64,000 bases of DNA. Origin: an uncultured Candidatus Rokubacteria bacterium (GTDB lineage Bacteria > Methylomirabilota > Methylomirabilia > Rokubacteriales > CSP1-6). Under the pieces are notes generated by a model, which was not told the origin of the DNA, searched no databases, and saw nothing but the letters and a program-made list of their open reading frames with translations. Position numbers and translations under genes: made by a program. The stretch is from assembly GCA_963758635.1 (NCBI GenBank), contig CAVWWD010000003.1, positions 1-64,000 of the forward strand, read 5' to 3'. Positions 5,385 through 33,292 of the stretch are shown here, piece after piece (positions within the stretch are counted from its first letter, which is position 1; each line of letters opens with the position of its first letter).

Positions 5385-5480
5385 GTGCAGGACCAGCTCG
5401 GCCACCACTCGATCAAGGTGACAGTGGATGTCAACGGCCACCTGGTGCCTCGGGCGAACAAGGCGGCGGTGGACCGGCTG
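5385..5480 (+). pseudogene. tyrosine integrase C-terminal stub (module 4)
   Basis: QDQLGHHSIKVTVDVNGHLVPRANKAAVDRL = LGH..T..Y.H box II; the catalytic Tyr position reads Asn; near-identical to the 32951 stub. Confidence 0.8.
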
Positions 5481-5593
5481 ATCAGACACGGACGTTCCGG
5501 AGACCTGGCGGGAGCGTCTCGTGGCGTCCGGCGGGCCTACCGATGGTGGCGCTGAACGGCACCCCCGCGGCACCAACGGGCCTCCGAAGCGAA

Positions 5594-5647
5594 ACGCGGG
5601 GCCACGGGGCGGCCCGTAACCCGCGTCAAGAATTGGTGGAGCTGAGG
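5594..5647 (-). repeat. att site 4: 14-bp copy of tRNA-Ala 3' end (5634-5647) with adjacent terminator-like hairpin
   Basis: TGGTGGAGCTGAGG identical to 33217-33230; preceded on + by CGCGGGGCCACGGG..CCCGTAACCCGCG hairpin. Confidence 0.8.
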
Positions 5648-5964
5648 CGTGCCGAACTTGACCGGTGTTCTGCAAGTACCACAGAAGATCGGAATTCTGA
5701 CATTGCCGTCCTCGGCTCGTGGTGGTCGTCGGTGAATTTCACCAGCGATCGCGGTCGAGGGCCAGCCCGGCGAGGAGTTCCTGGAGGCGGTGCTCGAGCC
5801 CGGGTCGTGTTCTTGTGGTCCTGTCGCTCGTGGCGGCCCTGGTCGAGACGCTCGCGGCGAGGCGGGAGGAGGATTGAGTCCGGCAGCCCTCGCGGCGTGA
5901 GTTGCGCTACTCTCTGCGCACCGTTCCGATCTCGACCGCCCCGACCGCTTGGGAGACTTCCGGC

Positions 5965-8900
5965 ATGACGTGTCCCCGGTGCCAGGTGGAGAATGAGGCG
6001 GGCGCGCGCTTCTGCGAAGACTGCGGCGCCCGGCTTGAGGCGGCCTGCCCGAGCTGTGGCACCCCAGTCACGCCGGGCAAGAAGTTCTGCCGGTCATGCG
6101 GCGCCGCGCTCAGCACTGAGCCAGGGGGCCGCTTCGCCAGCCCCGAGTCGTACACTCCCGCGCACCTCGCCGAGAAGATCCTTACCTCGAAGAGCGCCCT
6201 CGAAGGCGAGCGCAAGCAGGTCACGGTCCTCTTCGCTGATCTGAAGGGCTCCATGGAGCTGCTCGCCGATCGTGACCCCGAGGAGGCGCGCAAGCTGCTC
6301 GACCCCGTGCTCGAACGGATGATGGAGGCCGTCCACCGTTACGAGGGCACGGTGAATCAAGTCATGGGCGACGGCATCATGGCGCTCTTCGGTGCTCCGC
6401 TGGCTCACGAGGACCACGCCGCACGCGCCTGTTACGCCGCGCTGCGCATGCAGGAGTCAGTGGCGCAGTACGCGGAGGGGGTCTTCCGCTCGCACGGGGT
6501 ACCCGTCCAGATCCGCGTGGGGCTCAATTCCGGTGAGGTGGTCGTCCGCGCCATCGGGTCAGATCTACACATGGACTACACGGCGGTCGGTCAGACGACC
6601 CACCTGGCCGCTCGTATGGAGCAGATGGCGACACCCGGCACAATCCTCCTCGCCCCCGCGACCCTTCAGCTCGCCGAGGGCTATGTGCAGGTCGCGGCTC
6701 GGGGACCGGTCGCGGTCAAAGGCCTGCCGGACCCGGTGGAGATCTACGCGCTCACCGGAGCGACCGCGCAGCGGACCCGGCTCCACGCGGCCGCCGCGCG
6801 GGGATTGACGCGGTTCGTCGGCCGCGACGCCGAGATCGAGCAGATGCGCCGGGCGCTCGCCCTCGCGCACGATGGGCGCGGCCAGCTTGTCTCCGTTGTG
6901 GGGGAGCCCGGCGTGGGGAAGTCACGCCTCGTCTACGAGTTCACCCACTCCCACCGCACCCAGGACTGGCTCGTTCTGGAGTCGGGCTCGGTGTCCTACG
7001 GCAAGGCGACCAACTACCTGCCGGCCATCGATCTCCTCAAGGCCTACTTCAACGTGCACGACCGCGAGACCCACCGCGAGGTACGCGAGAAGGTCACCGG
7101 CAAGCTCCTCACGCTGGACCGGACTCTCGAGCCCACCGTGCCCGCCCTGCTGGCCTTGCTGGACGTGCCCGTCGAGGACACCGAGTGGCAGGGCCTCGAT
7201 CCGCCGCAACGCCGCCGGAGAACCCTCGATGCCGTCAAGCGCCTCCTACTGCGCGAGTGCCAGCGGCAGCCCCTCCTTGTGATCTTCGAGGATCTCCACT
7301 GGATCGACTCCGAGACGCAGGCGCTCCTGGACAGCTTGGTCGAGAGTCTGCCGACGGCAAGACTGCTCCTCCTCGTCAACTACCGACCGGAGTACCGCCA
7401 CGGCTGGGGGAGCAAGACCTACTACACCCAGCTCCGTCTCGACGCCCTTCCTCCCGAGAGCGCGTACGAGCTGCTCCTGGCTTTGCTGGGCACCGACGCC
7501 ACCGTCGAGATGCTCAAGCCCGCTCTCATCGCCCGGACTGGCGGCAATCCCCTCTTCCTCGAGGAGAGCGTGCGGACGCTGGTCGAGACGCGCGCCCTTA
7601 CTGGCAAGGGCGGGGCCCATCGACTCGCCCGGCCCCTCGACACGATCGACGTGCCCGCCACCGTGCAGACGATCCTCGCCGCGCGGATCGATCGGCTGGA
7701 TCTTCAAGACAAGCAACTCCTCCAGACCGCCGCCGTCATCGGCAAGGACGTGCCGTTCGCCCTCCTGCTCGCCATTGCCGAGCTTGGCGAGGAGGACCTG
7801 CGCCACGGGCTCGCCCGCCTCCAGGCCGCTGAGTTCCTCTACGAAACGAGCCTCTTCCCCGACCTCGAATACACCTTCAAGCACGCGCTGACCCACGAAG
7901 TCACCTACGGCACCCTGCTCCAGGACCGACGTAAGGTGTTGCACGCCGGGATCGTCGAGCGCCATCGAGACGCTGCTATCCGGACCGGCTGATCGAGCAC
8001 GTCGAGCGCCTGGCCTACCATGCCGTGCGGGGCGAGATGTGGGAGCACGCGGTCACATACCTCCGGCAGGCCGGTGCCAAGGCGTTCGCGCGCTGGGCCC
8101 ATCAGGAGGCCGTGACGTGCTTTGAGCAGGCGCTCGACGGCCTTGTCGCATCTGCCTGAGACCCGCGAGAGGCTGGAGCAGGCCATTGATCTGCGCTTTG
8201 ACCTGAGAACGTCGCTCTTTCCGTTTGGACAATTCGAGCGGATCTTGGGCCGTCTCCGCGAAGCTGAAGCCCTGGCGAGGACGCTCGAGGATCAACGGCG
8301 ACTCGGTCAGACGTTCGTTCATATGTGCCTCAACGTCTGGATGACTGGTCATCCGCAGGAAGCGGCCGCGTTCGGCCAGAGCGCCCAGGCTCTTGCCGGG
8401 ACGCTTGAAGATGTTCCGCTCCAGATCACGGGAAACCTCTACTTCGGCGTGGCTTACCTCGGTACGGGCGACTATCGACGGGCCGAGGAGCTTCTCCTGC
8501 AAGCCCTGCACTTGCTCGAAGGTGATCGGAGCAGGGAGCGATTTGGCCTCGCCTCATTTGTGACCGCGACCGCCAGCGCCTCGCGCTCTCCCCACAGCGC
8601 GGCCCGGATGTTCTTGACGTGGGTTCTCGCCGACCAGGGAAGGTTCAAAGAAGGAACCGCCCACGGCCAGGAAGCCATTCGCCTCGGCGAGGCGCTTGGT
8701 AACCCCTTCACCCTGGCCAACGTTAGTTGGCATCTCGCCAATCTCGAGATCATCAGAGGAGAGCTCAGCCACGCCGTCCGCCTGCTGGAACGCGGGTCGG
8801 CGCTGAGCCGCGAGTGGAACTTGCCCTTCTGTACAGTGGACGCGACAGGGAGTCTGGGCTACGCCTACGCGCTCTCGGGGCAGGTTGCTGAGGGCATCTC

Positions 8901-9345
8901 GTTGCTGGAGCACGCGGTCACCGCCAGTGAGACCATGCAATACGGAGCTGTCCAGCCACTCTACCTCTGCTATCTGGGCGAGGCGTATGTCCTCGCCGAT
9001 CGGACCGAGGACGCTCTCGCATTCGCCGGGCGAGCCCTGACCCTTGCCCGTGAGCGCGGTCAACGCCCCTACGAGGCGCGGGCCCTCCGCCTCCTCGGCC
9101 AGGCCACCGCCCGCCTCGATCACTCGGAGCACGCTGACGATCATTACCGTGACGCGCTCGCGCTCGCCGAGAGCCTCGGGATGCGCCCCCTCATCGCTCA
9201 CTGCCACCTCGGCCTCGGCAAACTCCACCGACGCACAGGCCAGCAGGAGCAGGCGCGCGAGCACGTCACCACCGCGACGACGATGTACCGCGAGATGGGG
9301 ATGACGTACTGGCTGGAGCAGGCGGAGGCGGAGAGGGGAGCGTGA
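5965..9345 (+). CDS. double zinc ribbon + class III adenylate/guanylate cyclase + AAA ATPase + TPR protein, frameshifted near 7960-8140
   Basis: CPRC..CEDC..CPSC..CRSC; ERKQVTVLFADLKGS, GDGIMALFGAP; Walker A GEPGVGKS; FEDLHW; GGNPLFLEE; TPR-like C-terminus in ORF 8122..9345. Confidence 0.9.
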
Positions 9346-9657
9346 CCGCGAAGCCCAGACCCCGCAGGAGGCAGGCGATCGCAAACAAGTACAGCGTGAC
9401 GCTCCTGGACGGGAGCACGCAGCGAGTCGCGGTCGTGCGGAACGAGAGCGTAAGGTGTCATTCACGAGGCGGTTGGGGGGTGGTCCGCGCCTTGACTGGC
9501 GGCCGGGAGGGCTCGACCTTGACGTAACGCTCGGAGTCGGCCGCCGGCCGCCCAGGCGCCCGATGCCGCGGCGTCTGCGTTTGACAAGCTCGCGCCCGCT
9601 GTGGTTCATGTGACGCACTCTCAGCATCGAGTCGAAGGCCCGCCGAGGAGGAATCCC

Positions 9658-11238
9658 ATGATGCTGCGCCGCCTGCTGATCGTCTCCCTGGCCCTGGCAG
9701 CCATCGTCGTGGCGAGCGTGCCCGTGCACGCGCAGACGACGCTTCGGGTCGTCATGCACTCCGACCTGAAGATCATCGACCCCGTCTGGACGACGGCCTA
9801 CATCGTCCGCAACCACGGCTACATGGTCTACGACACGCTCTTCGCCATGGACGCGAAGGGCGAGATCAAGCCGCAGATGGTCGACAAGTACGACGTCAGC
9901 GCCGACAAGCTGACCTACACGCTCACGCTGCGCGACGGGCTTCTGTGGCACGACGGCAAGCCCGTCACCTCCGAGGACTGCGTCGCCTCCATCAAGCGGT
10001 GGGCGGCCAAGGACTCGCTGGGTCAGAAGCTGATGACCTTCGTCAAGGAGCTGCAGGTCGTCAGCCCGAAGACGTTCAAGATCCTGCTCAAGGAGCCCAC
10101 GGGGCTCGTGCTCAGCGGCCTCGGCAAGCCGAGCTCGAATGTGCCGTTCATGATGCCCAAGCGCGTGGCCGAGACCGATCCCAACACGCAGATCTCGGAG
10201 ACCATCGGGTCCGGCCCCTTCATCTTCAAGAAGGAAGAGTGGAAGCCCGGCGACAAGGCCGTCTACGTGAAGAACCCGCAGTACAAGCCGCGCAGCGAGC
10301 CGGCGTCGGGCCTGACGGGCGGCAAGGTCGTGAAGGTCGATCGCGTGGAGTGGAAGTGGATCCCCGATCAGCAGACCGCGATCAACGCGCTGCTCGCCGG
10401 CGAGATCGACTACATGGAAGCGCCGCAGCACGACCTGCTGCCGGTGGTGAAGAAGGACGCGAACCTCAAGCTCGTCGACTACAACCCCCTCGGGAACCAA
10501 TACACGTTCCGTTACAACGTGCTGCACAAGCCGTTCGACAACGCGAAGATCCGCCAGGCCGTCCTCTACGCCTTCAACCAGGAAGACTTCCTGAAGGCGA
10601 CGATCGGCGATCCCGCGTACTACAAGACGTGTCGGTCCTTCTATCCGTGCGGCGGGCCGTTCGAGACGACGAAGGGCCTGGAAGGCATGCTCGAGTCGAA
10701 CTTCGCCAAGTCGCAGGCGCTCCTGAAGGAGGCGGGCTACGACGGCACGCCCGTGGTGCTGATGCAGTCCACGGACCTTGCCGTGCTTGCCAACCTGGCG
10801 CCGGTCGCGAAGTCGCTGCTCGAGAAGGGCGGCTTCAAGGTGGATCTGGTCGCGATGGACTGGCAGACCCTCGTCGCGCGGCGCGCGAAGAAGGATCCGC
10901 CGAATGCCGGTGGCTGGAACGCGTTTCTCACGGGGTGGGTCGCCGCGGACATTCTCGACCCCGTGATGATGGGATTCATGAACGCGGGCTGCGACAAGGC
11001 GATGTTCGGCTGGCCGTGCGACAAGGAGATCGAGGCGCTCCGTGATCAGTTCGCGCGCGAGACCGTCCCCGCCAAGCAGAAGGCCATCGCGGAGGCGGTG
11101 CAGGTTCGCGAGACGCAGTATCCGACGCACATCCCACTCGGTCACTTCTTCGTCCCGCTCGCCGTGCGCAAGAGCACGGATGGCTACGTGCAGGCGCCCG
11201 TGCCGGTGTTCTGGAACGTCACGAAATCGGGGAAGTAG
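9658..11238 (+). CDS. ABC transporter substrate-binding protein, family 5 (peptide/nickel)
   Basis: GAGGAGG RBS, signal peptide, DPVWTTAYIVRNHGYMVYDTLF, LRDGLLWHDG, GSGPF. Confidence 0.92.
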   Translation: MMLRRLLIVSLALAAIVVASVPVHAQTTLRVVMHSDLKIIDPVWTTAYIVRNHGYMVYDTLFAMDAKGEIKPQMVDKYDVSADKLTYTLTLRDGLLWHDGKPVTSEDCVASIKRWAAKDSLGQKLMTFVKELQVVSPKTFKILLKEPTGLVLSGLGKPSSNVPFMMPKRVAETDPNTQISETIGSGPFIFKKEEWKPGDKAVYVKNPQYKPRSEPASGLTGGKVVKVDRVEWKWIPDQQTAINALLAGEIDYMEAPQHDLLPVVKKDANLKLVDYNPLGNQYTFRYNVLHKPFDNAKIRQAVLYAFNQEDFLKATIGDPAYYKTCRSFYPCGGPFETTKGLEGMLESNFAKSQALLKEAGYDGTPVVLMQSTDLAVLANLAPVAKSLLEKGGFKVDLVAMDWQTLVARRAKKDPPNAGGWNAFLTGWVAADILDPVMMGFMNAGCDKAMFGWPCDKEIEALRDQFARETVPAKQKAIAEAVQVRETQYPTHIPLGHFFVPLAVRKSTDGYVQAPVPVFWNVTKSGK

Positions 11239-11303
11239 CGGCGGTCCTTGAGGGCGAGCGGCACGCGGGGCCGGCGGTCTTCGTAGATCTCGTCAGGCGT
11301 CTG

Positions 11304-12245
11304 ATGCTGGTCTACGTCGTCAAACGGCTGCTCGCCACCATCCCCGTCATGCTCGTCGTCGCGGTGGTCGTGTTCTCCATGCTGAGGCTGACCGCTGGGG
11401 ATCCGGCGGCCATCATCGCGGGGGACAACGCCACCAGCCAGGACATCGCCGCGATCCGGGCCAAGCTCGGCCTCGAACGGCCGATCGTCGAGCAGTTCGG
11501 GATCTGGATCAGCAAGGTCGTGCGCGGCGATTTCGGTGAGTCGTTCTTCTTCAAGCGGACGGTGGCGTCGCTGATCGCCGAGCGGATCGAGCCCACGCTC
11601 GCGCTCGCCATCCTCACGCTCATCCTCACCGTGTGCATGGCGGTGCCGCTCGGGGTCGTCGCGGCCTGGCGGCGCGGCACCTGGATCGATCGCGGTGTGA
11701 TGAGCCTGTCGGTGCTCGGCTTCTCCGTGCCCGTGTTCGTCATCGGCTACGCGTTCATCTACCTGTTCGCGATCCAACTCGCGTGGCTGCCGGTGCAAGG
11801 GTATCAGCGGCTCAGCGAAGGCATCGGCGGGTTCCTCGAGCGGCTGATCCTGCCGAGCGTCACACTCTCGGTCATCTACGTCGCGCTCATCGCGCGCACC
11901 ACGCGGGCCAGTGTGCTCGAGGTGCTTGACGCCGATCACGTGCGCACCGCGCGCGCGAAGGGGCTCGGCGAGCTGCCGGTGCTGATCCGCCACGTGCTGC
12001 GCAACGCCTCCGTGCCGATCGTCACCGTCATCGGCTTTGGCGTCGCGCTACTGATCGGGGGCGTCGTGGTGACGGAGTCCGTCTACGCGATTCCCGGGCT
12101 CGGGCGGCTCACCGTCGACGCGGTGCTCGCCCGTGACTATCCGACGGTGCAGGCGGTCATCCTGCTGTTCTCGGTCGCCTACGTGCTCATCAACCTCCTC
12201 GTCGATCTCACGTACACGCTCCTCGACCCGAGGATCCGATATTGA
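11304..12245 (+). CDS. peptide ABC transporter permease (DppB/OppB-like)
   Basis: GDPAAII, RTARAKGL, VVTESVYAIPGLGRL, LDPRIRY. Confidence 0.93.
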   Translation: MLVYVVKRLLATIPVMLVVAVVVFSMLRLTAGDPAAIIAGDNATSQDIAAIRAKLGLERPIVEQFGIWISKVVRGDFGESFFFKRTVASLIAERIEPTLALAILTLILTVCMAVPLGVVAAWRRGTWIDRGVMSLSVLGFSVPVFVIGYAFIYLFAIQLAWLPVQGYQRLSEGIGGFLERLILPSVTLSVIYVALIARTTRASVLEVLDADHVRTARAKGLGELPVLIRHVLRNASVPIVTVIGFGVALLIGGVVVTESVYAIPGLGRLTVDAVLARDYPTVQAVILLFSVAYVLINLLVDLTYTLLDPRIRY

Positions 12246-13174
12246 AGACGGTCGCGGAACCGACCCCGGTCGCCCTGGTCGACGCGGCGGCGCCCGGCGT
12301 GCCCCAGGCGAGGGGCCGCATGCGTCGTCATCGCAGCATCGTCATCGGGGGCGCGATCCTCGGCGCGATGGTCCTCATGGCCCTCCTTGCGCCGGCCCTC
12401 GGCACCGTCGATCCCGCGCAGATCGATCCGGTCGCGCGCAACCGGCGGCCCGGCGCCGAGCGCACCGTGCGCAACGCCGATGGGACGCAGAGCACGCTCA
12501 AGCACTGGATGGGCACGGACAGCCTCGGCCGCGACGTTTACAGCCGCGTCGTGTACGGCGCACGCGTCTCGCTGATCGTCGGGGCCACGGTGGCCCTGAT
12601 CAGCAGCCTGGTCGGGCTCGTGATCGGCATCCTGGCCGGCTACCTGCGGTGGCTCGACAACCTCGTGATGCGGATCATGGACGGGCTCATGTCGATTCCC
12701 GCGGTCCTGCTCGCGATCGGGCTCGTCTCGGTCTCACGCGCGGGCCTGCACAGCGTGATCCTCGCCATCGTCATTCCCGAGGTCCCGCGTGTCGTCCGCC
12801 TCGTGCGCTCGGTCGTGCTCTCGGTGCGCGAGGAGCCGTACGTCGAGGCGGCGATCGCGCTCGGAGCGCGGCTGCCGCGGCTGCTCGTCTTCCACGTCAT
12901 GCCGCGGACGATCGCGCCGCTGATCGTCCAGGCGACCTTCGTCTGCGCGTCCGCCATCATCGTCGAGGCGATCCTGAGCTTCCTCGGTGTCGGCATTCCG
13001 CCGGAGACGCCGACGTGGGGCAACATCATGGCGGAGGGCCGCGCGCTGTTCCGCATCTTCCCGCACAACATCCTCTTCCCCGGCATCTTCCTCGCCGTCA
13101 CCGTGCTGGCCGTCAACATGCTCGGCGACGGGCTGCGCGACACGCTCGATCCACGGGTCCGGAAGCGGCGCTGA
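12242..13174 (+). CDS. peptide ABC transporter permease (DppC/OppC-like)
   Basis: HWMGTDSLGRDVYSRVVYGARVSL, EAILSFLGVG, GDGLRDTLDPR; overlaps upstream stop. Confidence 0.93.
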   Translation: MKTVAEPTPVALVDAAAPGVPQARGRMRRHRSIVIGGAILGAMVLMALLAPALGTVDPAQIDPVARNRRPGAERTVRNADGTQSTLKHWMGTDSLGRDVYSRVVYGARVSLIVGATVALISSLVGLVIGILAGYLRWLDNLVMRIMDGLMSIPAVLLAIGLVSVSRAGLHSVILAIVIPEVPRVVRLVRSVVLSVREEPYVEAAIALGARLPRLLVFHVMPRTIAPLIVQATFVCASAIIVEAILSFLGVGIPPETPTWGNIMAEGRALFRIFPHNILFPGIFLAVTVLAVNMLGDGLRDTLDPRVRKRR

Positions 13175-13296
13175 GCTCACGAGCACGCTTGCGGCCTGCG
13201 TCGGCGGCGGTTGAAGCCGCCTTCAGTAGGCGGTTGCTCAGGAAGAAGGCGATGGTCGCCCCACGGAGCCTGACCGAGGCGCCGTGGATCTCGTGG

Positions 13297-15900: not shown

Positions 15901-15924
15901 GGCGGCCTTGATCTCCAGGCTTGC

Positions 15925-23804: not shown

Positions 23805-23850
23805 GGGATCGCGCCCTCCCTTCCGTCGCCAGCGCAATGACTCAGGACCG

Positions 23851-24453: not shown

Positions 24454-24623
24454 GGATTCTCCTCTCAGAGCGCGGGTCGGGTTGCTCTCCCAAGCCTCGC
24501 GTGGGGGCGTCATCGCAGCGTCATCGCAGCCGTCATCGGCGCCCCGGGCGCCTTGACCCTCGGCGAGCGCGATTGATACAGTCGGCTCGGGCTTGCGGCG
24601 CCGCTCGGCTACCCGCGACGGTC

Positions 24624-27600
24624 ATGGAATCGCTGACGGTCAGGCTCTTCGGAAAGTTCGAGCTTCGGGGCGCCGGTGAGCGACCGCTCGCGCTTCCCTC
24701 GAGGAAGGCCCAGGCCCTGCTGGCCTATCTCGCGATGCGCCCAGGTCAGCGCCACGCGCGCGAGCAGATCACCGCGCTCCTTTGGCCCGAGACTGACGAC
24801 GGCCGGGCGCATCACAGCCTTCGCCAGGTGCTCTTCGTGACGCGGAGGGCGCTGGCCCCGGCCGACCCGCTCCTCACCGCCGACGCGCTGGTCCTCGATC
24901 CCGCGGTGGTGGACGTGGACACCGTGGCGTTCGAGCAGCTGAGCGCCGCGGGGACCCCCGAGGCACTGGAGCGGGCGGTCGCGCTCTACCGGGCGGATCT
25001 GCTCGAGGGCTTCCCGCATGCGTCGGCGCCATACGAGGAGTGGCTCTGCACCGAGCGCGAGCGCCTCCGGGAGCTCGCGGGCGACGCGCTGGCCAAGCTC
25101 CTCGCGCACCAATCGAGCGCGTGCGAGACGGAGCCCGCCATCCGGACCGCGCTCAAGCTCCTCGCCCTGGATCCGTTGCAGGAGCCGGTCCATCGGGCGC
25201 TCATGAGCCTGTACGCCCGGCAAGGACGGCGCGCGACCGCGCTCCGCCAGTACCAGATCTGCGTGGTCACCCTCAGGCGGGAGCTCGGCGTCGAGCCCGA
25301 GGCCGAAACGCGCGCCCTGTACCGGGAGATCCTGCCCCGCTCGGGCCCGAGCCTCGGGCCCGGGGTCGACGGCCTGGCCGGGCCTTCCCGGCTCCTCCGG
25401 CGACGGGACGAATCCGAGGCCCCGCTGGTCGGCCGCGACGCCGAGATGCGGCAGCTTCGTGCCGCGCTGGGCGAGGCCTGGTCGGCGGAGGCGCGCACGA
25501 TCGTTATCGGGGGCGAGGCGGGGATCGGGAAGAGCCGGCTGGCCGCCGCGCTGGCCGAGGAGGCGATCGCCCGGGGTGGGCGCGCCCTGCTGGCCCGGGC
25601 CTGGGAGTCCGAGCAGCTTCCCTTCCAGCTCTGGATCGACGCAGTGCGGGACGCCGGCGTCCTGCTGGACCGCGACCTGGTCGAGGCCCTGCCCGCGCGG
25701 GTCCGCTCCGAGCTCGCGCGGCTCTTCTCGGAGCTGGGAGGGCCCGCGGCGCCGCGGGCGTCCGGCGGAGCGGGCGCGACGCTCCTGTTCGACGCGATGC
25801 GCGAGCTGCTCGCGCGGCTCGCCGAGCGCCAGCCTCTCGTCCTGGTCCTCGACGACGTCCACTGGGCCGACGAGATGAGCCTGCAGCTCCTGTCCTTCCT
25901 GGCCCGCCGGCTGCGTGGCACGCTCGTGGTGGCGACGGCCAGGGACGAGCAGCTCGACGACGCGACCGGGCTTCGGGGCCTCGTCGACGACCTGGAGCGA
26001 GAGGGGCGGGCGCGGCCGCTCCGCCTCGCCGGCCTCTCCCGGGGCGAAACGGAGGTGCTCGTCCGCGCCCTCGCCCGTACCGGCGCGGAGCCGTACTGGC
26101 TGGCCCTGGCCGGCGACCGGGTCTGGACGCTCAGCGAGGGCAACCCGTTCGTGATCGTGGAGTGCATGCGGACCTTGCCCCGCGCCGGAGCGGACGAGAA
26201 CGTCTCGCTGCCGCCGCGCATCCGCGACCTGATCACGGCGCGCGTGGACCGGCTGAGCGAGGCGGGCCGGCAGCTGGCGGCGGTGGCTGGCGTGATCGGA
26301 CGCGAGTTCGCCTTCGGCGTCGCTCAGCAGGCCGCGGGCCTCTCCCCCGAGGCCGCCGCCGAGGCCGCCGAGGAGCTGGTCCGCCGCCGGGTCCTCGACG
26401 CCGCAGGCGAGCGGTTCCGGCTCACCCACGACCGCATCCGTCGGGTGCTCTACGAGCGACTGCTCGCGCCGCGCCGGCGCCTCCTCCACGAGCGCGTGGC
26501 TGAGGCCCTGGAGGCGGAGCACGCGGGGCGCCTCGACGAGGTCGCCGACCAGCTCGCGCACCACTACGCGCAGGCGGGCGTGGCGGAGCGCGCGGTGGCC
26601 TGGCTGGGCGTGCTCGTGCGCACCGCGCTGCAGCGCTACGCCTTCGCGGAGGCCGAGCGCTGGATTGATCACGCCCTCGCGCTCACCGAGCAGGTGCCCC
26701 CGCTCCTGCGCGACCGCCTGTACCTGCCGCTCGTCATCCGCCGGAAGGCCTACTCGCTGTCGCTGCGCGGCTGCTCGCGGGAGGTGCTCGACCTCCTGCA
26801 GCCGCTCCAGGACCGCGTGCAGGCCGTTGGGGAGCCGGGCCTGGCTGGCTGGTACTTCCTCCGGTTGGCGTACGCCCACAACTACCTGGGCTCGCCCGAC
26901 GAGACCCGCGCGACGGCGACGCGCGCGCTCGACGAGGCCCGCCGGAGCGGAGACCCGGAACTGATCGCGTGCGCTCACTGCGCGCTCGCGATGAGCCAGT
27001 ACTGCATGGGGGAGCCGCGCGTCGGCGCCGATCACGCCCGCGAGGCCATCGCGGCGCTCAGCGCCCGGCCGCCCGTCGTCTGGCTCGGCTATGCCCATGC
27101 CTACCTCGCCGGCAACCTCTACTTGCTCGGCGAGCTCAGGGCCGCGCTGGCGTCGGCCGAGACCGCGGCGACGATCGGGGCGAGCATCGGCGAGACTGTC
27201 GTCCAGGTCGAGGCGGGCCTGGCCGCGGGCCGCATCCGCGTGGCCTGCGGCGACTGGGAGCACGTGGCCGAGGACTGCCGCGTCGCGCTCGAGAGCCAGT
27301 CGGAGCTGAGCCGGGCCGCGGGGACGGCTCTCCTGGGCTACGCGCGCCTCGATCGCGGGGAGGCCGCGGAGGCGCTCCCCTTGCTCCGGGGCTCGGTCGA
27401 GCAGCTCACCCGCCTGGGGCTACGCTACCTCGCGGGCCGCTTCATGCCTGCGCTGGCCGAGGCCTGGCTCGCCGTGGGCGATCGCGCACAGGCGCGCTCG
27501 TGGGCCGAGCAGGCATGCGCGCTCAACGGGCAGATCCGGTCACGCTGGGCGCTGGGCCTCGGCCAGCGCGCGCTCGCCCGGGTGGCGTGGGCCGACGGCG

Positions 27601-27845
27601 CGCTCGCCGAGGCGGGCCGCGAGGTCCGCCGCGCGCTGGCGACGTTCGCCGAGGTCCCGATGCCGTACGAGCTCGCCCTGACCCATCAGCTCCTGGGCGA
27701 GCTGGCTGCGGTCACCGGCGAGCCGAGCGACGCCGCGGCGAGCTTCCGCCAGGCGCGGTCCCTGCTGCGGAGCCTGGACCTGCCGAAGCGCGTGGCCGAC
27801 GTGGAGCGGCGGGCCCGAGCGCTCGCGCTACCACTCGAGAGCTGA
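24624..27845 (+). CDS. SARP/BTAD transcriptional regulator fused to AAA ATPase and TPR repeats
   Basis: SRKAQALLAYLA, LDPLQEPVHRALMSLY (BTAD), Walker A GEAGIGKS, LDDVHWAD, EGNPF. Confidence 0.9.
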   Translation: MESLTVRLFGKFELRGAGERPLALPSRKAQALLAYLAMRPGQRHAREQITALLWPETDDGRAHHSLRQVLFVTRRALAPADPLLTADALVLDPAVVDVDTVAFEQLSAAGTPEALERAVALYRADLLEGFPHASAPYEEWLCTERERLRELAGDALAKLLAHQSSACETEPAIRTALKLLALDPLQEPVHRALMSLYARQGRRATALRQYQICVVTLRRELGVEPEAETRALYREILPRSGPSLGPGVDGLAGPSRLLRRRDESEAPLVGRDAEMRQLRAALGEAWSAEARTIVIGGEAGIGKSRLAAALAEEAIARGGRALLARAWESEQLPFQLWIDAVRDAGVLLDRDLVEALPARVRSELARLFSELGGPAAPRASGGAGATLLFDAMRELLARLAERQPLVLVLDDVHWADEMSLQLLSFLARRLRGTLVVATARDEQLDDATGLRGLVDDLEREGRARPLRLAGLSRGETEVLVRALARTGAEPYWLALAGDRVWTLSEGNPFVIVECMRTLPRAGADENVSLPPRIRDLITARVDRLSEAGRQLAAVAGVIGREFAFGVAQQAAGLSPEAAAEAAEELVRRRVLDAAGERFRLTHDRIRRVLYERLLAPRRRLLHERVAEALEAEHAGRLDEVADQLAHHYAQAGVAERAVAWLGVLVRTALQRYAFAEAERWIDHALALTEQVPPLLRDRLYLPLVIRRKAYSLSLRGCSREVLDLLQPLQDRVQAVGEPGLAGWYFLRLAYAHNYLGSPDETRATATRALDEARRSGDPELIACAHCALAMSQYCMGEPRVGADHAREAIAALSARPPVVWLGYAHAYLAGNLYLLGELRAALASAETAATIGASIGETVVQVEAGLAAGRIRVACGDWEHVAEDCRVALESQSELSRAAGTALLGYARLDRGEAAEALPLLRGSVEQLTRLGLRYLAGRFMPALAEAWLAVGDRAQARSWAEQACALNGQIRSRWALGLGQRALARVAWADGALAEAGREVRRALATFAEVPMPYELALTHQLLGELAAVTGEPSDAAASFRQARSLLRSLDLPKRVADVERRARALALPLES

Positions 27846-28029
27846 CGCAGGGCCCTCGGGGCGTGGGCGAACATGAAGGGCCCAGGCGATTCCCAGCCTA
27901 CCCCTCGCGCTGGGGCGCTGTCCTCAGAGCAGGCGCGCCAGCACCTCCGGGGGACGTGGCGGCGAAGCGCGGGAAACGCCTCCAGCAGCCGGGCGATGTG
28001 GCTCACGACGGCCTCAGCGTACGCGTTAC

Positions 28030-28226
28030 GGGCGCTTGAGGCGGCGATGGTCAGGGTGAGGTCGGGCAGGTCGGCCGAGAGGAGACCGGCGGAGCGAAAC
28101 CCGACGCAACCCCGCGCAACCAGAGCGCTGCCGAAACGCAGCGCGGGGCTACGGATCGCTCCGTAACCCCGCGTCAAGAATTGGTGGAGCTGAGGGGGCT
28201 CGAACCCCTGACCCCAAGACTGCCAG
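28030..28226. repeat. att module 2: integrase tail, three arm-like boxes, hairpin, 45-bp tRNA-Ala 3' half copy (28182-28226)
   Basis: 28182-28226 identical to 33217-33261 and stops in the anticodon loop; CGAAACC/CGCAACC/CGCAACC at 28095, 28105, 28115. Confidence 0.92.
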
Positions 28227-28499
28227 AGCGCGAAGAAGATCATAAGTCATCGATAGATAAGAAGCGCCGCTCGGCAAAACGCGGCAAAAAGTAGCACCGG
28301 ACGCCACCCAGACGGCACCCGCTACGTGATCGCGAACCGCTGGGGCCGGGCGCGGCGGCGCGGTCGCCCCCGAAGCCTGCCCGGTTAGCCATGGTGCGCC
28401 GGCCAGGATCTTTGTTGGCGGCTAGGCGGCCCCGCGCACGTCGGCGCCGAGGGTGCAGCACGAGCTTTCCGCGGATGCCGAGGCGGGCCCCGCGGCAGC

Positions 28500-29240
28500 A
28501 CGAGTGGGCGCGGGCGACGTGCGTGTCCGTCTCCGTGGCCTCCATCGCGATGCCGCAGGCGAAGTCACCGGCCGGGTCCCGGTCGTCGGCGATTGCAGGA
28601 TGACGTACGACGCGCACGCGCCGCGCCCGAAGCGGACCTGCCCCGACTTCGTCCTCCGAGCCCAGCTTGTATCGCACGTAGCTGTACAGGCCGCGGCGGC
28701 TCTGCTCGTTGGCGGCCTTGTTGAACCGCGCCTGCTGCTGGTCGGCGACCAGCGCCCACTGCACGGCGTCCAGGATGTTGCGGTCGAGGATCTTCAGCTC
28801 GCGCAACATGTCGAGCGTGTTGCGGCGGGCCTCGCTGAGGGACACGCCGGGCCGGGCCGCAAACACCTCCGGCCGCAGCAGCGACGCGATGGAGTGAGCG
28901 TAGCCCTGGAACAGAGGCTGCTCGTCCCGGGCCACACGTACGAGGGCCTCAAGGATGCGCGCGCCATACGGGTAGAAGTTGAGCACCTCGCCGATGGCGC
29001 TGCGGTACTCGAAATGGAACCAGCCGGCGGCCTCGAGCCGGCCGACGAGCCGGCGGAGGTGGCCCGCAGCTGGGCCGCCTCGTCGGGTGATGCCTCTCCG
29101 GCGTCGTCGGAATCCACGGCCAGCGCCAGCAGCTCATCACGACGGTCCGACCACGCCGGCGACTCCCGGACCAGCTCCTCGGTCGTGTCGACGACGACGC
29201 TCCGGAGCAGGAAGAACGGCTCGCGCTCGAACTCGTAAGA
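28500..29240 (-). pseudogene. Wadjet remnant: internal jetA (DUF5716-type) fragment fused to an N-terminal jetC (SMC-like) fragment
   Basis: RLEAAGWFHFEY..VLNFYPYGARILEAL..FQGYAHSIASLL..NTLDMLRELKILDRN, then ILDAVQWALVADQQQARFNKAANEQSRRGLYSYVRYKLGSEDE; recognised from family memory. Confidence 0.65.
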
Positions 29241-29422
29241 CCCTACCGCACGCCTGATCGGTTGGCTACTTGGCGGCCGTCGGCGGCAGAGACGAGGGCT
29301 CCCTTTCGCCTGCGCCTCTCCCATGGAACTGCCACCGGGAATGAGGTCCCGAAGTCGCGCTGCACGCGACGCTGATTCGGCGTGACCGGTGAGCTGGCGG
29401 TCCCTCATCGTGCCCGACCGAT

Positions 29423-29452
29423 CCCGTAAACCGTAAATATGGCAATATGGGA
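29423..29452 (+). promoter_or_regulatory. candidate antitoxin autoregulatory operator
   Basis: CCGTAAA CCGTAAA TATGGCAA TATGGGA: tandem half-sites in inverted arrangement directly before the antitoxin start. Confidence 0.4.
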
Positions 29453-29455
29453 TCG

Positions 29456-29854
29456 ATGAAGACGACCATCGAGATCCCTGATCGGCTGTTTCGCAAGGCC
29501 AAGTCGAAGGCCGCTGAGCGCGGTCAGACGCTCAAGGAACTCTTGACGGAAGCCTTGCAGGAAAAGCTCGCGCTCAGTGCGGGCCGAGCTGGTCGCGGTG
29601 AGCCCGGGTGGATGGGCGGGTTCGGCAAGCTCCGCCGTCTCCGCAAGGAGACGAAGCGCATCCAGGCTCGGATCGACGAAGCGTTCGAGGTCATCGAGCT
29701 CGAGGATGTCCGGGTTGGGCTCAAGCGAACAGGTCGACCGATCCCGGCAAACGATGCCTGGATCGCTGCTCTCGCGCTACAGCATGGGCTGCCGGTCCTG
29801 AGTCGAGACCGGCACTTTGACGCAGTGCCGGGCCTCGAGCGCGCGGGATGGTAG
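29456..29854 (+). pseudogene. RHH-type antitoxin (VapB-like) fused in frame to the C-terminal part of a PIN toxin (VapC-like)
   Basis: MKTTIEIPDRLFRKAKSKAAERGQTLKELL, then GRPIPANDAWIAALALQHGLPVLSRDRHF; PIN N-terminal (LDTN) part absent. Confidence 0.75.
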
Positions 29855-29899
29855 CAGAACACTGGCGGGATCGGCTGGCGTGACCCGGCGTGGCCCCCG

Positions 29900-30050
29900 T
29901 GTGACCAAGCGGTCGTTGCAGTCGGCGTACCCCAAGACCAGTCCGAACAGGCGCTGACGCACCAACTGCAACCCCGACATGCTGGACTTTGCCCGGGTGG
30001 CGGCCATCCCGCAGGCAGCGGGCGACGGCCGCCGTGACCCCGGCTGCCGA
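29900..30050 (-). mobile_element. IS1380-family transposase fragment
   Basis: LRDGRHPGKVQH + LVRQRLFGLVLGYADCND across a frameshift. Confidence 0.65.
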
Positions 30051-30056
30051 TCGACG

Positions 30057-30097
30057 GCCTTGAGCAGTCACGCATGAAGCCTTGAGCAGTCACGCAT
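30057..30097 (+). repeat. 19-bp direct repeat with 22-bp period
   Basis: GCCTTGAGCAGTCACGCAT at 30057-30075 and 30079-30097. Confidence 0.9.
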
Positions 30098-30191
30098 TGA
30101 AGCGGGTCGAATAGCGCGTACGGTATCTACTCGGATGCCGACGAACGCTCTCATTGAATAAGCGGAAGTAAGAAGTAAGAGGAGTAGGGAA

Positions 30192-30716
30192 ATGATCAGA
30201 ACGAGCGTGATTGCAGCTTGCTTGCTCTTGGGTCTAAGCGCGGGGGCACAAGCGACGCCTGTTTCAGAAGTCGAGCCCAACGATACGTTCTCAACTGGCC
30301 AGAACGTCGGACCACACGACGGAAGCCTTAGCATCACCGGCTTTCGCGAAGATGGCGACGTCGACTTTTTCCGGTTTCAGGGAACCTCAGGGGATGTAAT
30401 CACCTTGGAAACTTTCGACTTGGGCGGCGGAACATTTTTCGATTCCGTGATTGTGCTGTGGGACCCATCGGGGGCTGAGATTGCCTTCGATGACGACAGT
30501 GGCGCTTGTCTTTTTTGTTCAAGGCTTGATTTCACGCTAGTAGGTTCCGGCCTTTTCGAGGTCTCCGTGTCAGGCTTCTTCTCCAGCGACACGTTCAACT
30601 ATCGCCTTGACATAAGCGGCTTGACGCCAGTGAGTGCCGTTCCCGGGCCAGGCACGTTAGCCCTTCTCGGACTCGGTTTTGCCGGTTTTGCGGCGACGCG
30701 TCGCCGCAAGCAGTAA
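30192..30716 (+). CDS. secreted PPC-like (pre-peptidase C-terminal) domain protein with PEP-CTERM-like VPGP tail
   Basis: signal peptide ending AQA; EVEPNDT, DVDFFRF, DSVIVLWDPSG..FDDDSG; VPGPGTLALLGLGFAGFAATRRRKQ; lower GC than flanks. Confidence 0.8.
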   Translation: MIRTSVIAACLLLGLSAGAQATPVSEVEPNDTFSTGQNVGPHDGSLSITGFREDGDVDFFRFQGTSGDVITLETFDLGGGTFFDSVIVLWDPSGAEIAFDDDSGACLFCSRLDFTLVGSGLFEVSVSGFFSSDTFNYRLDISGLTPVSAVPGPGTLALLGLGFAGFAATRRRKQ

Positions 30717-30739
30717 GCATCTTTCTCTTCTACAGGGAC

Positions 30740-30935
30740 CCATGTCCAACGTACCCCCGGGGATCCATGCGGACCGACAAGCCGCCCTTCAATGACGCGC
30801 GTGTGCATCGCGCCAGCTCTCATGCCGTCGACCGTCAGGCCATCAACGATTCCGTCTTCCTCAGGGGGAAGCGCAGTCCGGGTGCCTCTCGCGGCCTGCC
30901 CGAATGGATCTCCTCGCATCGACCAGCTGGAGCTA
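30740..30935 (+). pseudogene. internal fragment of a family-5 ABC substrate-binding protein
   Basis: MRTDKPPFNDARVHRASSHAVDRQAI resembles the PF.D.RVR.A...AIDR motif. Confidence 0.55.
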
Positions 30936-31181
30936 GCCAGCCCAAGAGCCCAGCCGCCCCGTCGGCCGGCTTACACGACTCACGGTCTCCCTGAGGCCGA
31001 ACCGTGAAGTGTCCCGGCTAGCCGCCGACGACCGAGCGCCGGCGCGGGAGCACGCGATACCGGTGCCATGATCGGACCGAGGCCCGGCCCCGGTCAACAG
31101 TGGCCCGGGATCGACGCCGAGGCTGGTGGGCGCGGAAGCCCTCGCGCTAGAATCCGGCCGGGAGGGCGCGCGCAGACCCCC

Positions 31182-32108
31182 ATGAGCCACGAGCGAGCGG
31201 TGACCGTCGAGGAGATCGTGGGTCTCGTCGACGCGTGGCGCGGCCGGCCGGTGTCCATCCAGCGGCTCACCAACGGGCTCACCAACGCGAACTACCGGGT
31301 CGACGTCGACGGCGAGGCGTTCGTCGTGCGGATCCCGGGCGCGTCGACGGAGCTCCTGGCCATCGACCGGGCGAACGAGCTCCACAATGCCCGGATCGCG
31401 GCCGGGCTCGGCATCGGCCCCGCCGTGCTCCACCACTTCCCGGAGAACGGTGCGACCGTCGGGGAGTTTCTGCACGGCCGGCCCATGACGAACGCCCGCT
31501 TCGGGGAGTCCGGCATGCCCGCCCGGATCGCCGCGACGCTCCGAGACATCCACGGCGGCCCGCGCTTCCTCCGTGACTTCGACATGCTGAGCCTGGCCGC
31601 GCGGTACGAGGGCGTCTTGGAGGCGCGGGGCTTTCCCTTCCCCTCCGGGTACCGGGCGCGGCGGCCCACGATCCAGGCGATCGGCAGAGTGCTCGCCGCG
31701 CGCCCGCTTCCCGCCGTGCCCTGCCACAACGACCTCCTGGCCGACAACTTCATCGACCAGGACGGGAGGCTCCGGCTGCTGGACTGGGAGTACAGCGGCA
31801 ACGGCGATCCGGCGTTCGAGCTCGGGAACAACTGCCGCGAGCTGGACTACGGCGAGGGTCAGGTGGAGGAGCTCTGCGGCGCGTACTTCGGCGGCGCGCA
31901 GGCGCCGCTGGTGGCGCGGGTTCTTCTCCACATGATCGTGTCCGACGTCGGCTGGTCGCTCTGGGCGGCGATCCAGCGGGCGATCTCCCGGATCGCGTTC
32001 GACTTCGAGGCCTACGGCGCCGCTCGCTGGACCCGGGCCGAGGCGGCGATGGACGCTGCCGACTTCCCGTGGTGGCTCGAGGCGGTCACGGAGGCGGCGC
32101 GCCGCTGA
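31182..32108 (+). CDS. choline/ethanolamine kinase-like phosphotransferase (APH family)
   Basis: GLTNANY, RIPG, Brenner motif CHNDLLADN, LLDWEYSG. Confidence 0.88.
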   Translation: MSHERAVTVEEIVGLVDAWRGRPVSIQRLTNGLTNANYRVDVDGEAFVVRIPGASTELLAIDRANELHNARIAAGLGIGPAVLHHFPENGATVGEFLHGRPMTNARFGESGMPARIAATLRDIHGGPRFLRDFDMLSLAARYEGVLEARGFPFPSGYRARRPTIQAIGRVLAARPLPAVPCHNDLLADNFIDQDGRLRLLDWEYSGNGDPAFELGNNCRELDYGEGQVEELCGAYFGGAQAPLVARVLLHMIVSDVGWSLWAAIQRAISRIAFDFEAYGAARWTRAEAAMDAADFPWWLEAVTEAARR

Positions 32109-32173
32109 TCGAGGCGCGGAGGCCTTTCAGCGCGCTGCCGGCACCACGCCGCGCCCCGTCCCGAGGCGGCGGC

Positions 32174-32400
32174 TCACGCCTGGAGCTTCCGGACGACCTT
32201 CCCGCTCGTGTCGGTGAGCCGGAACGCCCGGCCCTGGTGCCGGTACGTGAGCTTCATGTGGTCGAGCCCCATCAGGTCGAGGATCGTCGCGTGCAGGTCG
32301 TGGACGTGGACCGGGTCCTCCGTGATGCCGTACCCGAGCTCGTCCGTCGCGCCGACCAGGGTGCCGGCGGCGATGCCCCCCGCCCGCCATCCACATGGTG
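32174..32400 (-). pseudogene. DUF1501 family C-terminal fragment
   Basis: [54 protein letters not shown]. Confidence 0.75.
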
Positions 32401-32519
32401 AGCGTCAAAGACGCGATCGTTATCGGCCGTGAGGTGGCTGAGTTCCGGTTATCCTGGATCGAGGATCCGATTCCTGCGAACGACCATGACGGACTCCGGC
32501 AGATCACCGAGGCGTTGGA

Positions 32520-32881
32520 GACACCCGGTCTGCGCCGGAGAGACCTTCCACCAAGCAATCGAATTCCGTAGCGTCCTGGACCGCCGCGCAGTAGACATCA
32601 TCATGCTCTGTTTGGAGGTGGGAGGCATCACACAGTTTCTCAGGATCGCCCACATCGTTGAGGCATACGGAGTTCCGCTGACCTACCACGTAACCATGGA
32701 GGCGGCGGCACATGCGCTCGCTGCGGTTACCGGCCGCATCGCCCCGGGCGCCTATCTTCCTTGGGCTGCGCCGCTGTTCACGGAGAAGCTACCAATCCGG
32801 AATGGCCGGCTTGCCTTGTTCGAGCGGCCGGGCCTAGGCTTGGATCTGGATCCGGCAGCGCTGAAGACGTTCGCGGTGTGA
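32520..32881 (+). pseudogene. mandelate racemase/enolase superfamily C-terminal fragment
   Basis: PVCAGE, VGGITQFLRIAH, ERPGLGLDLD; N-terminal domain absent. Confidence 0.7.
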
Positions 32882-32950
32882 CGGAGCCGACGACGTGTTG
32901 GATGGACAGTTGACGACGAGCTTCGGGCCATTGGCTGGCATGGCTTAGTC

Positions 32951-33125
32951 GCAAGCGACCAGCTTGGCCACCACTCGATCAAGGTGACCGTCGATGTCTA
33001 TGGCCACTTGGTGCCCGGCGCGAACAAGACCGCGGTGGACCGGCTGGATGAGCAGGCGCAGGCACTCGAGGCGGCGATCGGGCAGGGGAATGGCGGCGAG
33101 GATCAGGCGGGAGGGGAGCTGATCG
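32951..33125 (+). pseudogene. tyrosine integrase C-terminal stub (module 1), convergent on tRNA-Ala
   Basis: DQLGHHSIKVTVDVYGHLVPGANKTAVDRLDEQAQALEAA with box II His and catalytic Tyr; rest of gene missing. Confidence 0.85.
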
Positions 33126-33127
33126 AG

Positions 33128-33155
33128 CGCAACCCGGCGCAACCCCCGAGCAACC
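33128..33155 (+). repeat. three helically phased (C/A)GCAACC boxes, candidate integrase arm-type sites
   Basis: boxes at 33128, 33138, 33149; same triplet in att modules 2 and 3. Confidence 0.6.
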
Positions 33156-33167
33156 AAAGGCCCACCG

Positions 33168-33207
33168 AAAAGCAACGCGGGGTCACGGATCGCTCCGTAA
33201 CCCCGCG
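33168..33207 (-). terminator. intrinsic terminator downstream of tRNA-Ala
   Basis: minus strand CGCGGGGTTACGGA-GCGA-TCCGTGACCCCGCG followed by TTGCTTTT. Confidence 0.75.
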
Positions 33208-33216
33208 AGAAGAAAA

Positions 33217-33292
33217 TGGTGGAGCTGAGGGGGCTCGAACCCCTGACCCCAAGACTGCCAGCCTTGTGCTCTCCCAACTGAGCTACAGCCCC
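33217..33292 (-). tRNA. tRNA-Ala(GGC)
   Basis: GGGGCTGTAGCTCAGTTGGGAGAGCACAAGGCTGGCAGTCTTGGGGTCAGGGGTTCGAGCCCCCTCAGCTCCACCA: 76 nt, G3:U70 pair, GGC anticodon, encoded CCA. Confidence 0.97.

Follow-up and report, generated by a model that had tools for sequence, protein, structure and literature searches.

Stacked remnants of islands behind tRNA-Ala(GGC) in a Rokubacteria genome, probably inserted by recombinases of two classes

In a 64,000-nucleotide stretch of an uncultured Candidatus Rokubacteria genome (contig CAVWWD010000003.1, positions 1 to 64,000; hereafter the window), a tRNA-Ala(GGC) gene is followed by a stack of decayed islands. We consider it about 75% probable that the stack arose by at least six successive site-specific insertions of two unrelated element families, followed by deletion; most likely, it is a commonplace insertion hotspot in decay and does not represent a new integron-like cassette system. 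The tRNA gene (33217..33292, minus strand) is the restored target and the attL of the youngest unit. Exact copies of its 3' end occur at 28182 (45 bp), 18699 (16 bp) and 5634 (14 bp), as a preliminary description of this DNA had claimed; 0.01 copies were expected by chance, and four were reached in none of 100 shuffles. An intact tDNA and a displaced fragment in the same orientation, the pattern used by Islander, are both found in the window. The tandem accretion at the tRNA 3' end and the loss of integrases proposed in the preliminary description were supported. In that description, a module preceded each copy and the tRNA itself. There are indeed four homologous modules but, because the tRNA lies on the minus strand, they all follow its 3' end. 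The block found 3' of the tRNA in many family members is located mid-contig on C9 in this genome.

The last 90 bp of the modules showed 64-80 identical positions over 91-95 columns in an alignment of the four copies. By sequence, each module is the 3'-terminal part of a gene for a tyrosine integrase (family A) that is intact in relatives, and we refer to the modules as family-A left ends (all on the plus strand). Left end 1 (32945..33216) contains an integrase remnant with the last ~33 recognisable tyrosine-integrase codons (32957-33052), a C-terminal extension, CGCAACC boxes (33128-33155) and a hairpin with a 14-bp stem (33176-33207). A short-read contig from a different run (X1 record 7, 32289-33205) contains its truncation junction. 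Left end 2 (28031..28181) has boxes and hairpin without a catalytic-domain remnant; left end 3 (18515..18698) has the C-terminal extension, boxes and hairpin; left end 4 (5379..5633) retains ~32 integrase codons, GGCACC boxes and a weakened hairpin (z -0.86). The presumed integrase tail in every module was recognisable as a peptide at 32945-33052 and at 5379-5480, where the catalytic-region Tyr of other copies is changed to Asn, but not at 18.7 and 28.2 kb; the latter two modules keep only the post-catalytic extension and, at about 180 and 150 bp, are shorter than the 200-270 bp originally assigned to all four. The integrase tails of the window matched that of locus L166 at 83-85%.

The spacing of the CGCAACC boxes (10 and 11 bp) and the hairpin after them were confirmed. 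The boxes at 5.56 kb, previously called degenerate, carry a natural variant, GGCACC, that also occurs beside an intact integrase (L172), and the two junction subtypes thought to alternate along the stack are common spacer variants: 28 variants were present in the 80 metagenome sites listed, and both subtypes adjoin intact integrases. The module hairpin has a folding energy of -27.4 (tRNA strand) versus -17.8 kcal/mol, with compensatory changes in 7 of 13 pairs among 29 hand-picked copies; two of the four window copies lack a clean U-tract. A phage origin of the module was rejected, the module pattern having no match in viral contigs.

One family-A right end was identified (28182..28320, plus strand). 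It consists of the 45-bp displaced tRNA fragment, which stops at the anticodon loop, and a ~95-bp conserved arm with a GCACC-type doublet, and it was recovered with an E value of 1.8e-19 by a model built without that copy. This end is pristine: the fragment is identical to the tRNA at 45 of 45 bp, and the profile score (71.7) equals those of the best relatives. In 9 of 14 copies the arm has a stop codon at the same position; a coding role was not adopted, as variation is not concentrated at third positions. Intact family-A integrases were found in the same module at the same tRNA at L166, L169 and L172; genome G159 carries a full-length copy, part of which looks frameshifted, and in G005 a near-intact copy lies in an island of 4.2 kb that has both ends. 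An integrase gene, which Islander also requires, is thus available in these five relatives but reduced to ~33-codon remnants in the window.

The DNA to the right of the two short tRNA copies is of a different kind. At 18699..18805 (plus strand), a 16-bp tRNA fragment is joined to an att arm encoding the severed tail of a recombinase, with its stop codon at 18803-18805; at 5634..5713 (plus strand), a 14-bp fragment is joined to a similar arm whose tail frame is broken by a frameshift. The shared ACTTGA..AAGTACCAC noticed earlier is present at 5657 and 18722, its only two occurrences in the genome, and is the family-B att arm, which encodes the enzyme's severed tail. The enzyme was recognised in relatives. 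In G142, a 532-aa large serine recombinase (Resolvase, Recombinase and Zn-ribbon domains) is intact and abuts the tRNA; its ORF runs into the tRNA, so the gene overlaps the att site. Such a gene beside the RNA gene is absent from the window and was not found in this genome. Homologs with at least 53% identity lie beside the tRNA-Ala core in 6 of 7 genomes (a related-locus search with the recombinase returned its own record only), and left and right family-B ends are paired on one contig in G142, G159 and G060. An IS91-type origin of the GAACTTGA sides was also considered and was dropped after the serine recombinase was found.

Comparison of 6 family-B left arms with 9 right arms gave a single inverted-symmetry peak of 0.62, with other registers at or below 0.34; the family-A left arms of the window scored 0.30. 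Among the right arms, the 9 indel-free copies of 17 varied by codon position as 0.40/0.24/0.52, a coding-like pattern, and a conserved in-frame tail is present. Because the family-A right arm lacks a coding signature, tail swapping is supported for family B only. These data bear on the notion that a single tyrosine-integrase family made all units, the short copies being eroded or derived from crossover in the T-loop. A family-A module does lie left of all four copies, and the likeness of the short fragments to the tRNA extends to the T-loop; but the DNA to their right matches ends that, in relatives, are paired with a gene for a serine recombinase. It is also symmetric with the family-B left arm, encodes the family-B tail and is unlike the family-A arm. 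The single-family origin is largely refuted, and we regard it as very improbable.

Employing profiles built without the window's own copies, we classified the unit ends as four A left ends, one A right end (28231-28320), and two B right ends (5649 and 18714). A B left end was detected nowhere in this genome, nor was a second A right end in the window. By these profiles, units 2 and 3 have mismatched ends. Of the islands of about 5, 9.5, 13 and >5.6 kb proposed earlier, the 5-kb unit does have matching ends, but the 14- and 16-bp copies are right ends of large-serine-recombinase elements. Every unit has lost its integrase as stated, but cognate ends are kept in unit 1 only.

Unit 1 (28227..33216; 4,990 bp) is the only unit with matched family-A ends and is CIME-like; it carries a JetA fragment, weak antitoxin/PIN fragments, a PEP-CTERM protein, a choline-kinase/APH-family gene and an enolase-superfamily fragment. 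Its pristine right end and largely fragmentary cargo are also expected under selection for mobilisation. Unit 2 (18715..28181; ~9.5 kb), with an A left end and a B right end, carries a BTAD-ATPase regulator (24624-27845), small unknown ORFs and a TIR_2 gene interrupted by a DDE_5 transposase element (20490-22253). Unit 3 (5648..18698; ~13 kb) has the same combination of ends and contains a split adenylate-cyclase-ATPase-TPR gene, a peptide ABC transporter, an adenylation/PCP protein, glyoxalase, luciferase-like monooxygenase and TauD. The contig starts inside unit 4, whose interior (1..5378) holds decayed ORFs (acyltransferase and DUF4062 fragments); the end profiles found no right end of unit 4 in the window before the contig start. 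Much of the cargo in the window is fragmentary. A Pfam scan of 56 selected ORFs (1-37.8 kb) showed no recombinase, relaxase or T4SS families, and no conjugation genes were seen in the window. Hidden junctions within units 2 and 3 were sought and none was found at E<0.05 (1-34 kb).

Could the stack have been produced by assembly, with long reads of different strains joined at the repeated modules or at an IS1380-like patch, so that no cell has all four units? The region 18900..20070 is a low-quality, G-skewed consensus of an IS1380-like transposase copy, a multi-copy IS with near-zero short-read support (depth 0-0.6 at 18670-19336 in 3 of 4 runs); no listed contig bridges a whole junction, and other junk patches and frameshifts are present in the assembly. 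Against a chimera, some depth was recorded in 30 of 30 bins in runs X1, X4 and X20, and the cargo of units 1-3 is covered by near-identical contigs in the same runs. Moreover, three exact cores are stacked on single contigs in G142 and G159, the latter with a fourth, eroded junction, and each junction type has exact counterparts in relatives. We consider a chimera quite unlikely. The junk patch had also been considered as a hidden junction and is explained by the IS1380-like copy.

From the end types, the recombinases of relatives and the erosion pattern, we infer the following crossover points and order of events for the two-family stack. For family A, crossover would take place at the anticodon loop and leave the 45-bp copies and the conserved right arm; the box-and-hairpin module, in which its integrase gene terminates, is all that is left of it in the window. 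Family B would recombine 11-12 bases from the 3' end of the tRNA, at a GA dinucleotide. As its gene runs across the att site, integration would leave the last ~30 codons at the far end, which would be the sides seen at 5.6 and 18.7 kb. With each newcomer, the older DNA would come to lie farther from the tRNA. Loss of the recombinase genes would follow. The tRNA-proximal stub would persist, probably because its hairpin terminates the tRNA transcript or forms its 3' trailer. An internal junction (A right end, fragment and B left end) was likely deleted from units 2 and 3, which would be fixed, whereas unit 1, with matched A ends, could be excised by a visiting family-A integrase. The two deletions fusing A left ends to B right ends are unseen in the window; intermediates were found in G159 only, where one junction is half eroded and the undeleted intermediate is also present. 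Polar stacking is seen in related strains. L207/L208 share one decayed stub, found once at the intact tRNA and once displaced by a family-B insertion.

Erosion of the integrase was examined in metagenome sites (79 of at least 121 loci analysed, near-duplicate strains included). Among the 42 module sites listed with at least 1.5 kb of flank, a full-length family-A integrase was present in 3 and a different integrase in 1; 14 held a partial one and 24 held none. The 14 partial integrases begin at points between residues ~152 and ~361; in relatives, truncation points are scattered and erosion stops at no set position.

This pattern bears on whether the units are active non-autonomous cassettes, kept without integrase, moved in trans by a helper and exchanged between strains. 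The absence of a full-length integrase from 38 of the 42 modules would suit such a system, as would the well-preserved ends of unit 1, the intact helper recombinases circulating in the lineage, and, in several relatives, small units that have matched A ends but lack a complete integrase (2.6 kb in G150, 3.1 kb in G016, 2.5 kb in G048 and 7.9 kb in G145). The scattered truncation points, the mismatched ends of units 2 and 3 and the fragmentary state of much of the cargo argue against it. The four flanks of the window had no match among 83 flanks compared, and unit cargo matched other loci only through multi-copy gene families (64-77%). No cognate enzyme was found in G000. In the assembly, tblastn and profile searches yielded no cognate family-A integrase (best other tyrosine recombinase 26-40% over partial lengths), and the sole serine recombinase match was 27% over 203 aa with no tRNA called nearby; the assembly, which is 87% complete and whose contig opens within unit 4, could lack a helper recombinase. 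No att-to-att joint, whether of a circle or an empty site, was among the 15 joints listed (71 more unlisted; four runs, 14001-34000) in a check that covered assembled contigs, which drop rare circles, and a stretch that stops short of the 5.6-kb junction.

The integron-like platform proposed in the preliminary description gains nothing from these three checks. The IntI-type gene of the genome is on another contig (C6, TIGR02249 above cut-off), the remnants beside the array belong to family A and not to an integron integrase, and instead of uniform shuffled cassettes there are 5-13 kb units with mixed ends and no shared flank. Att sites derived from the tRNA account for the ends of the units. 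Trans-mobilised cassettes are in our estimate unlikely; by its end sequences, only the youngest unit may be mobilised in trans. It is doubtful, if slightly less so, that tRNA-Ala(GGC) is an order-wide Rokubacteria platform for a tyrosine integrase and a self-splitting serine recombinase, from which units like unit 1 are routinely excised and spread as cargo cassettes by visiting cognate enzymes.

The decaying stack itself obeys published rules of accretion and decay and is of a known kind. It locates a hotspot of variable genes in a soil lineage that is widespread and uncultured; none of the papers listed in a literature search mentioned Rokubacteria. It also adds two recombinase/att pairs that are new and have predicted crossover points; one comprises a tRNA-targeting serine recombinase that appears to split its own gene. 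According to a report on Dehalococcoides (PMC3146451), islands there are arranged in tandem behind one RNA gene, ssrA, with ~20-bp 3' repeats; DsiB, a ~540-aa serine recombinase, overlaps the att site and was suggested to be complete perhaps on the circle only, and 15 units without integration module were proposed to be cis-mobilisable or fixed. The Rokubacteria stack shares the tandem islands, the 3' repeats and, in family B, a recombinase gene over the att site. Unlike the DsiB islands at ssrA (tmRNA), its target is tRNA-Ala(GGC), a tyrosine-integrase family uses another subsite of the same gene, and no cognate recombinase was found in the genome.

In the model of CIMEs and accretion (PMC5704250), an element integrates, decays to one bearing attL and attR, and a newcomer integrates; internal att sites of the arrays are chimeric, and neighbours are usually decayed. 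Integration and transfer genes are lost throughout our stack, but cognate attL and attR are found in unit 1 only, the ends of units 2 and 3 belonging to two recombinase classes. In the tRNA islands that tycheposons build in Prochlorococcus (bioRxiv 10.1101/2020.12.28.424599), recombinases of both the tyrosine and the serine class occur; older elements are pushed into the island by newcomers, fragmented integrases and partial tRNAs lie scattered there, and active elements are a small minority. The present stack is from another phylum and has no replication or PICI-like modules, and here one tRNA is demonstrably shared by two enzyme classes.

Islander (PMC4383910) relies on a restored tRNA with a displaced 3' fragment, distinguishes subsites at the anticodon (A) and at the T-stem/acceptor junction (J), and reports tandems of at least two in 125 cases and of at least three in 4. 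An integrase is required for each unit; about 9 in 10 of the modules listed here lack a full one, and most units at sites of this kind escape island finders that rely on the integrase. Nor do repeated tRNA ends have to stem from one enzyme: serine recombinases were said there not to be known to target tRNA genes, whereas present evidence indicates that family B targets tRNA-Ala.

The tRNA-Ala(GGC) gene occupies positions 33217-33292 on the minus strand, and the islands lie wholly downstream of its 3' end. The host is presumably a soil Rokubacterium, as most of the stretch is contained in runs from soil metagenomes; in its assembly (G000; 6.17 Mb in 12 contigs, 87% complete), contig C3 begins with the window (64 kb). 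The 14-nt core of the tRNA 3' end was present in four copies (5634, 18699, 28182 and 33217), relative to 0.01 expected, and the three displaced copies matched the tRNA over 14, 16 and 45 bp, respectively, in agreement with the preliminary description. Among 183 genomes, G000 had the most exact cores; five others had three, two of these on one contig. As also described, a box-and-hairpin module lay on the left of every copy, but the integrase peptide attributed to each was readable only at 32945-33052 and 5379-5480. The two junction subtypes thought to alternate along the array were 2 of 28 spacer variants among at least 80 metagenome sites. Between tRNA-Ala and a divergent tRNA-Leu(CAA) there is a region of about 3.4 kb (33331-36745) with an aldo/keto reductase and small ORFs; unlike the window, the relatives G005 and G025 have another tRNA-like gene about 100 bp or less from tRNA-Ala. 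Two intergenic repeats, each with two copies and absent from the rest of the genome, were seen at 34398-34466/35226-35293 (77% over 64 bp) and 2938-3039/4707-4806 (75% over 102 bp).

The module is what remains of the 3' part of the gene for a tyrosine integrase (family A). Scanning metagenomes for the hairpin plus core, we analysed at least 79 loci with 80 sites, near-duplicate strains among them, and restricted the integrase census to those of the matches listed whose flank reached 1.5 kb or more (42 sites). Among these, three carried a full family-A integrase (L166, L169 and L172), and the other 39 carried an unrelated integrase (1), a partial gene (14) or nothing (24). The partial genes start at scattered residues, with GTDB relatives equally spread; the integrase tails of the window were 83-85% identical to L166. 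The family-A right end consists of a 45-47-bp tRNA fragment stopping at the anticodon loop and a conserved arm of about 95 bp, and in G005 both ends flank a near-intact integrase within 4.2 kb. The arm is in frame with the integrase, and 9 of its 14 copies share a stop; a third-position excess of variation was looked for in it and not found, so that we treat it as probably conserved at the DNA level, as arm sites. We likewise take the boxes to be integrase arm sites, from general knowledge of tyrosine integrases, and the GCAACC-type box seems general to the family-A-like integrase group.

Elsewhere in G000, GCAACC doublets occur at both ends of two other probable islands (C3:388176-412693 and C5:735395-737307), one doublet coming after an integrase remnant. 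A second island site (L297, C8:635.7-640.3 kb) lies at the 3' end of a protein-coding gene, where a 164-bp repeat, with copies 4.3 kb apart, flanks a frameshifted tyrosine integrase; its arms resemble the family-A right arm, and the site is also copied at C4:374.0-374.4 kb, near the C4 end. An integron integrase (L298, C6:379915-380484; TIGR02249 above cut-off) has a broken look-alike at C8:161786-161935.

The right sides of the short tRNA copies at 5.6 and 18.7 kb differ from family A and are common to seven aligned relatives. The shared ACTTGA..AAGTACCAC noted earlier on these two sides is indeed part of this arm, the right arm of a second family (B). In G142, a 532-aa large serine recombinase adjoins the tRNA, with a family-B right end 28 kb off; left and right ends are also paired in G159 (1.0 kb apart) and G060 (7.5 kb apart). 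Homologs with at least 53% identity were found in 7 of 183 genomes of the order, six of them adjoining the tRNA-Ala core. When six B left arms were set against nine right arms, two of them window copies, a single inverted-symmetry peak of 0.62 emerged, with its centre at a GA dinucleotide that lies 11-12 bases inside the tRNA end, versus at most 0.34 in other registers and 0.30 with window left arms. The attP of serine integrases shows such inverted symmetry around its centre. Read in the recombinase frame, the right arm reaches a stop after 28-35 codons in 10 of 17 copies; in the nine indel-free copies (the eight omitted include the frameshifted one at 5.6 kb), variation was lowest at the second codon position (0.24) and highest at the third (0.52). 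The sequences suggest that the B right arm encodes the tail of the serine recombinase, which would thus be self-splitting. At L196 (169-750), the usual family-B layout is reversed: to the right of a 14-bp tRNA-Ala fragment lies the truncated N-terminus of a serine recombinase, oriented towards the fragment.

End profiles built without the window copies matched four A left ends, one A right end (28231-28320) and two B right ends (5649 and 18714) in the window; a profile search of the whole G000 assembly found no B left end. Based on these end types, unit 1 (28227-33216; 4,990 bp) is an element whose ends match but which lacks an integrase. Units 2 (18715-28181; 9.5 kb) and 3 (5648-18698; 13 kb) are A-left/B-right chimeras, and unit 4 (interior 1-5378) extends past the contig end. 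The simplest history would comprise six insertions, from old to new A, B, A, B, A and A, and two deletions, each taking out an internal A-right/fragment/B-left junction. G159, whose tRNA is adjoined by a full-length family-A integrase, has such a junction behind that gene in intact form and once in a half-eroded one. Direct evidence for polar stacking comes from L207 and L208, which have a common decayed A stub: one locus has it next to the intact tRNA, and in the other a B insertion has displaced it.

The segment at 18.9-20.07 kb, with a strong G skew, is bad consensus rather than biology, covering a degraded IS1380-like copy: its first 670 bp are almost without short-read support in three of four runs, and it matches IS1380-like transposase copies elsewhere in G000 at 67-88%. 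Another strongly skewed, low-quality patch lies at C8:32200-33300. At 20490-22310, a TIR_2-domain gene is split by a frameshifted DDE_5 transposase element. Transposase-like fragments, presumably IS91-family look-alikes, occur near island right ends at 20095-20310, in L106 (right of 17982) and in L075. An adenylate-cyclase-ATPase-TPR gene (5902-9345) has kin of 68-73% identity close to the ends of tRNA-Ala islands at eight further loci (L064, L091, L104, L106, L112, L117, L119 and L127); as the family has many paralogs in G000, this recurrence need not mean enrichment at island ends.

The preliminary description read the array as an integron-like platform of non-autonomous cargo cassettes mobilised in trans. 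This is unlikely, and with units 2 and 3 mismatched it could apply to unit 1 only, whose ends are pristine. Also in its favour, small matched-end units without a complete integrase occur in G016, G048, G145 and G150, helper recombinases are in circulation within the lineage, and the assembly lacks 13% of the genome. However, the cognate enzymes sought in the rest of that assembly were not found: a family-A-like integrase (E<=1e-40) is present in 28 of 183 genomes but not in G000, whose other tyrosine recombinases match family A at 26-40% over partial lengths, and the single serine recombinase match (27% identity over 203 aa) left family B without a cognate. Circular or empty-site forms fared no better, with no att-to-att joint among the 15 joints listed (71 more exist) in contigs of four runs, which lose rare forms. 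Nor was there a sign of swapped cargo: the four module flanks of the window matched none of the others in a set of 83 flanks, and unit cargo, much of it fragmentary, matched only multi-copy gene families (64-77%). The stack is real and unusually deep, yet an ordinary decayed island stack.

Its interest lies in two recombinase classes using one tRNA and in the self-splitting serine recombinase. A review (PMC5704250) covers the accretion of elements in tandem and their decay to CIMEs, and other reports describe similar arrays: Dehalococcoides ssrA islands with units in tandem, others that are module-less, and a serine recombinase that overlaps its own att site (PMC3146451), and Prochlorococcus islands with older elements pushed in, fragmented integrases and partial tRNAs (bioRxiv 10.1101/2020.12.28.424599). 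The Islander study tallied 125 tandems and noted, in 2014, that no tRNA-targeting serine recombinases were known (PMC4383910). PMC12884075 contributed no specific point. Our literature search, mostly of papers outside subscription, found no description of this locus, nor of a tRNA at which two recombinase classes alternate.

In both families, the hairpin at the tRNA end is the last piece lost. The family-A consensus (29 hand-picked copies) folds at -27.4 kcal/mol on the tRNA strand versus -17.8 on the other, gaining G-U pairs where the other strand has C-A mismatches, and two-sided changes were seen at 7 of 13 pairs in these copies. Three of the four window hairpins folded far better than shuffles, but the oldest did not. 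The persistence of the stubs would be explained if, as predicted, the hairpin serves as a terminator or 3' trailer for the tRNA transcript.
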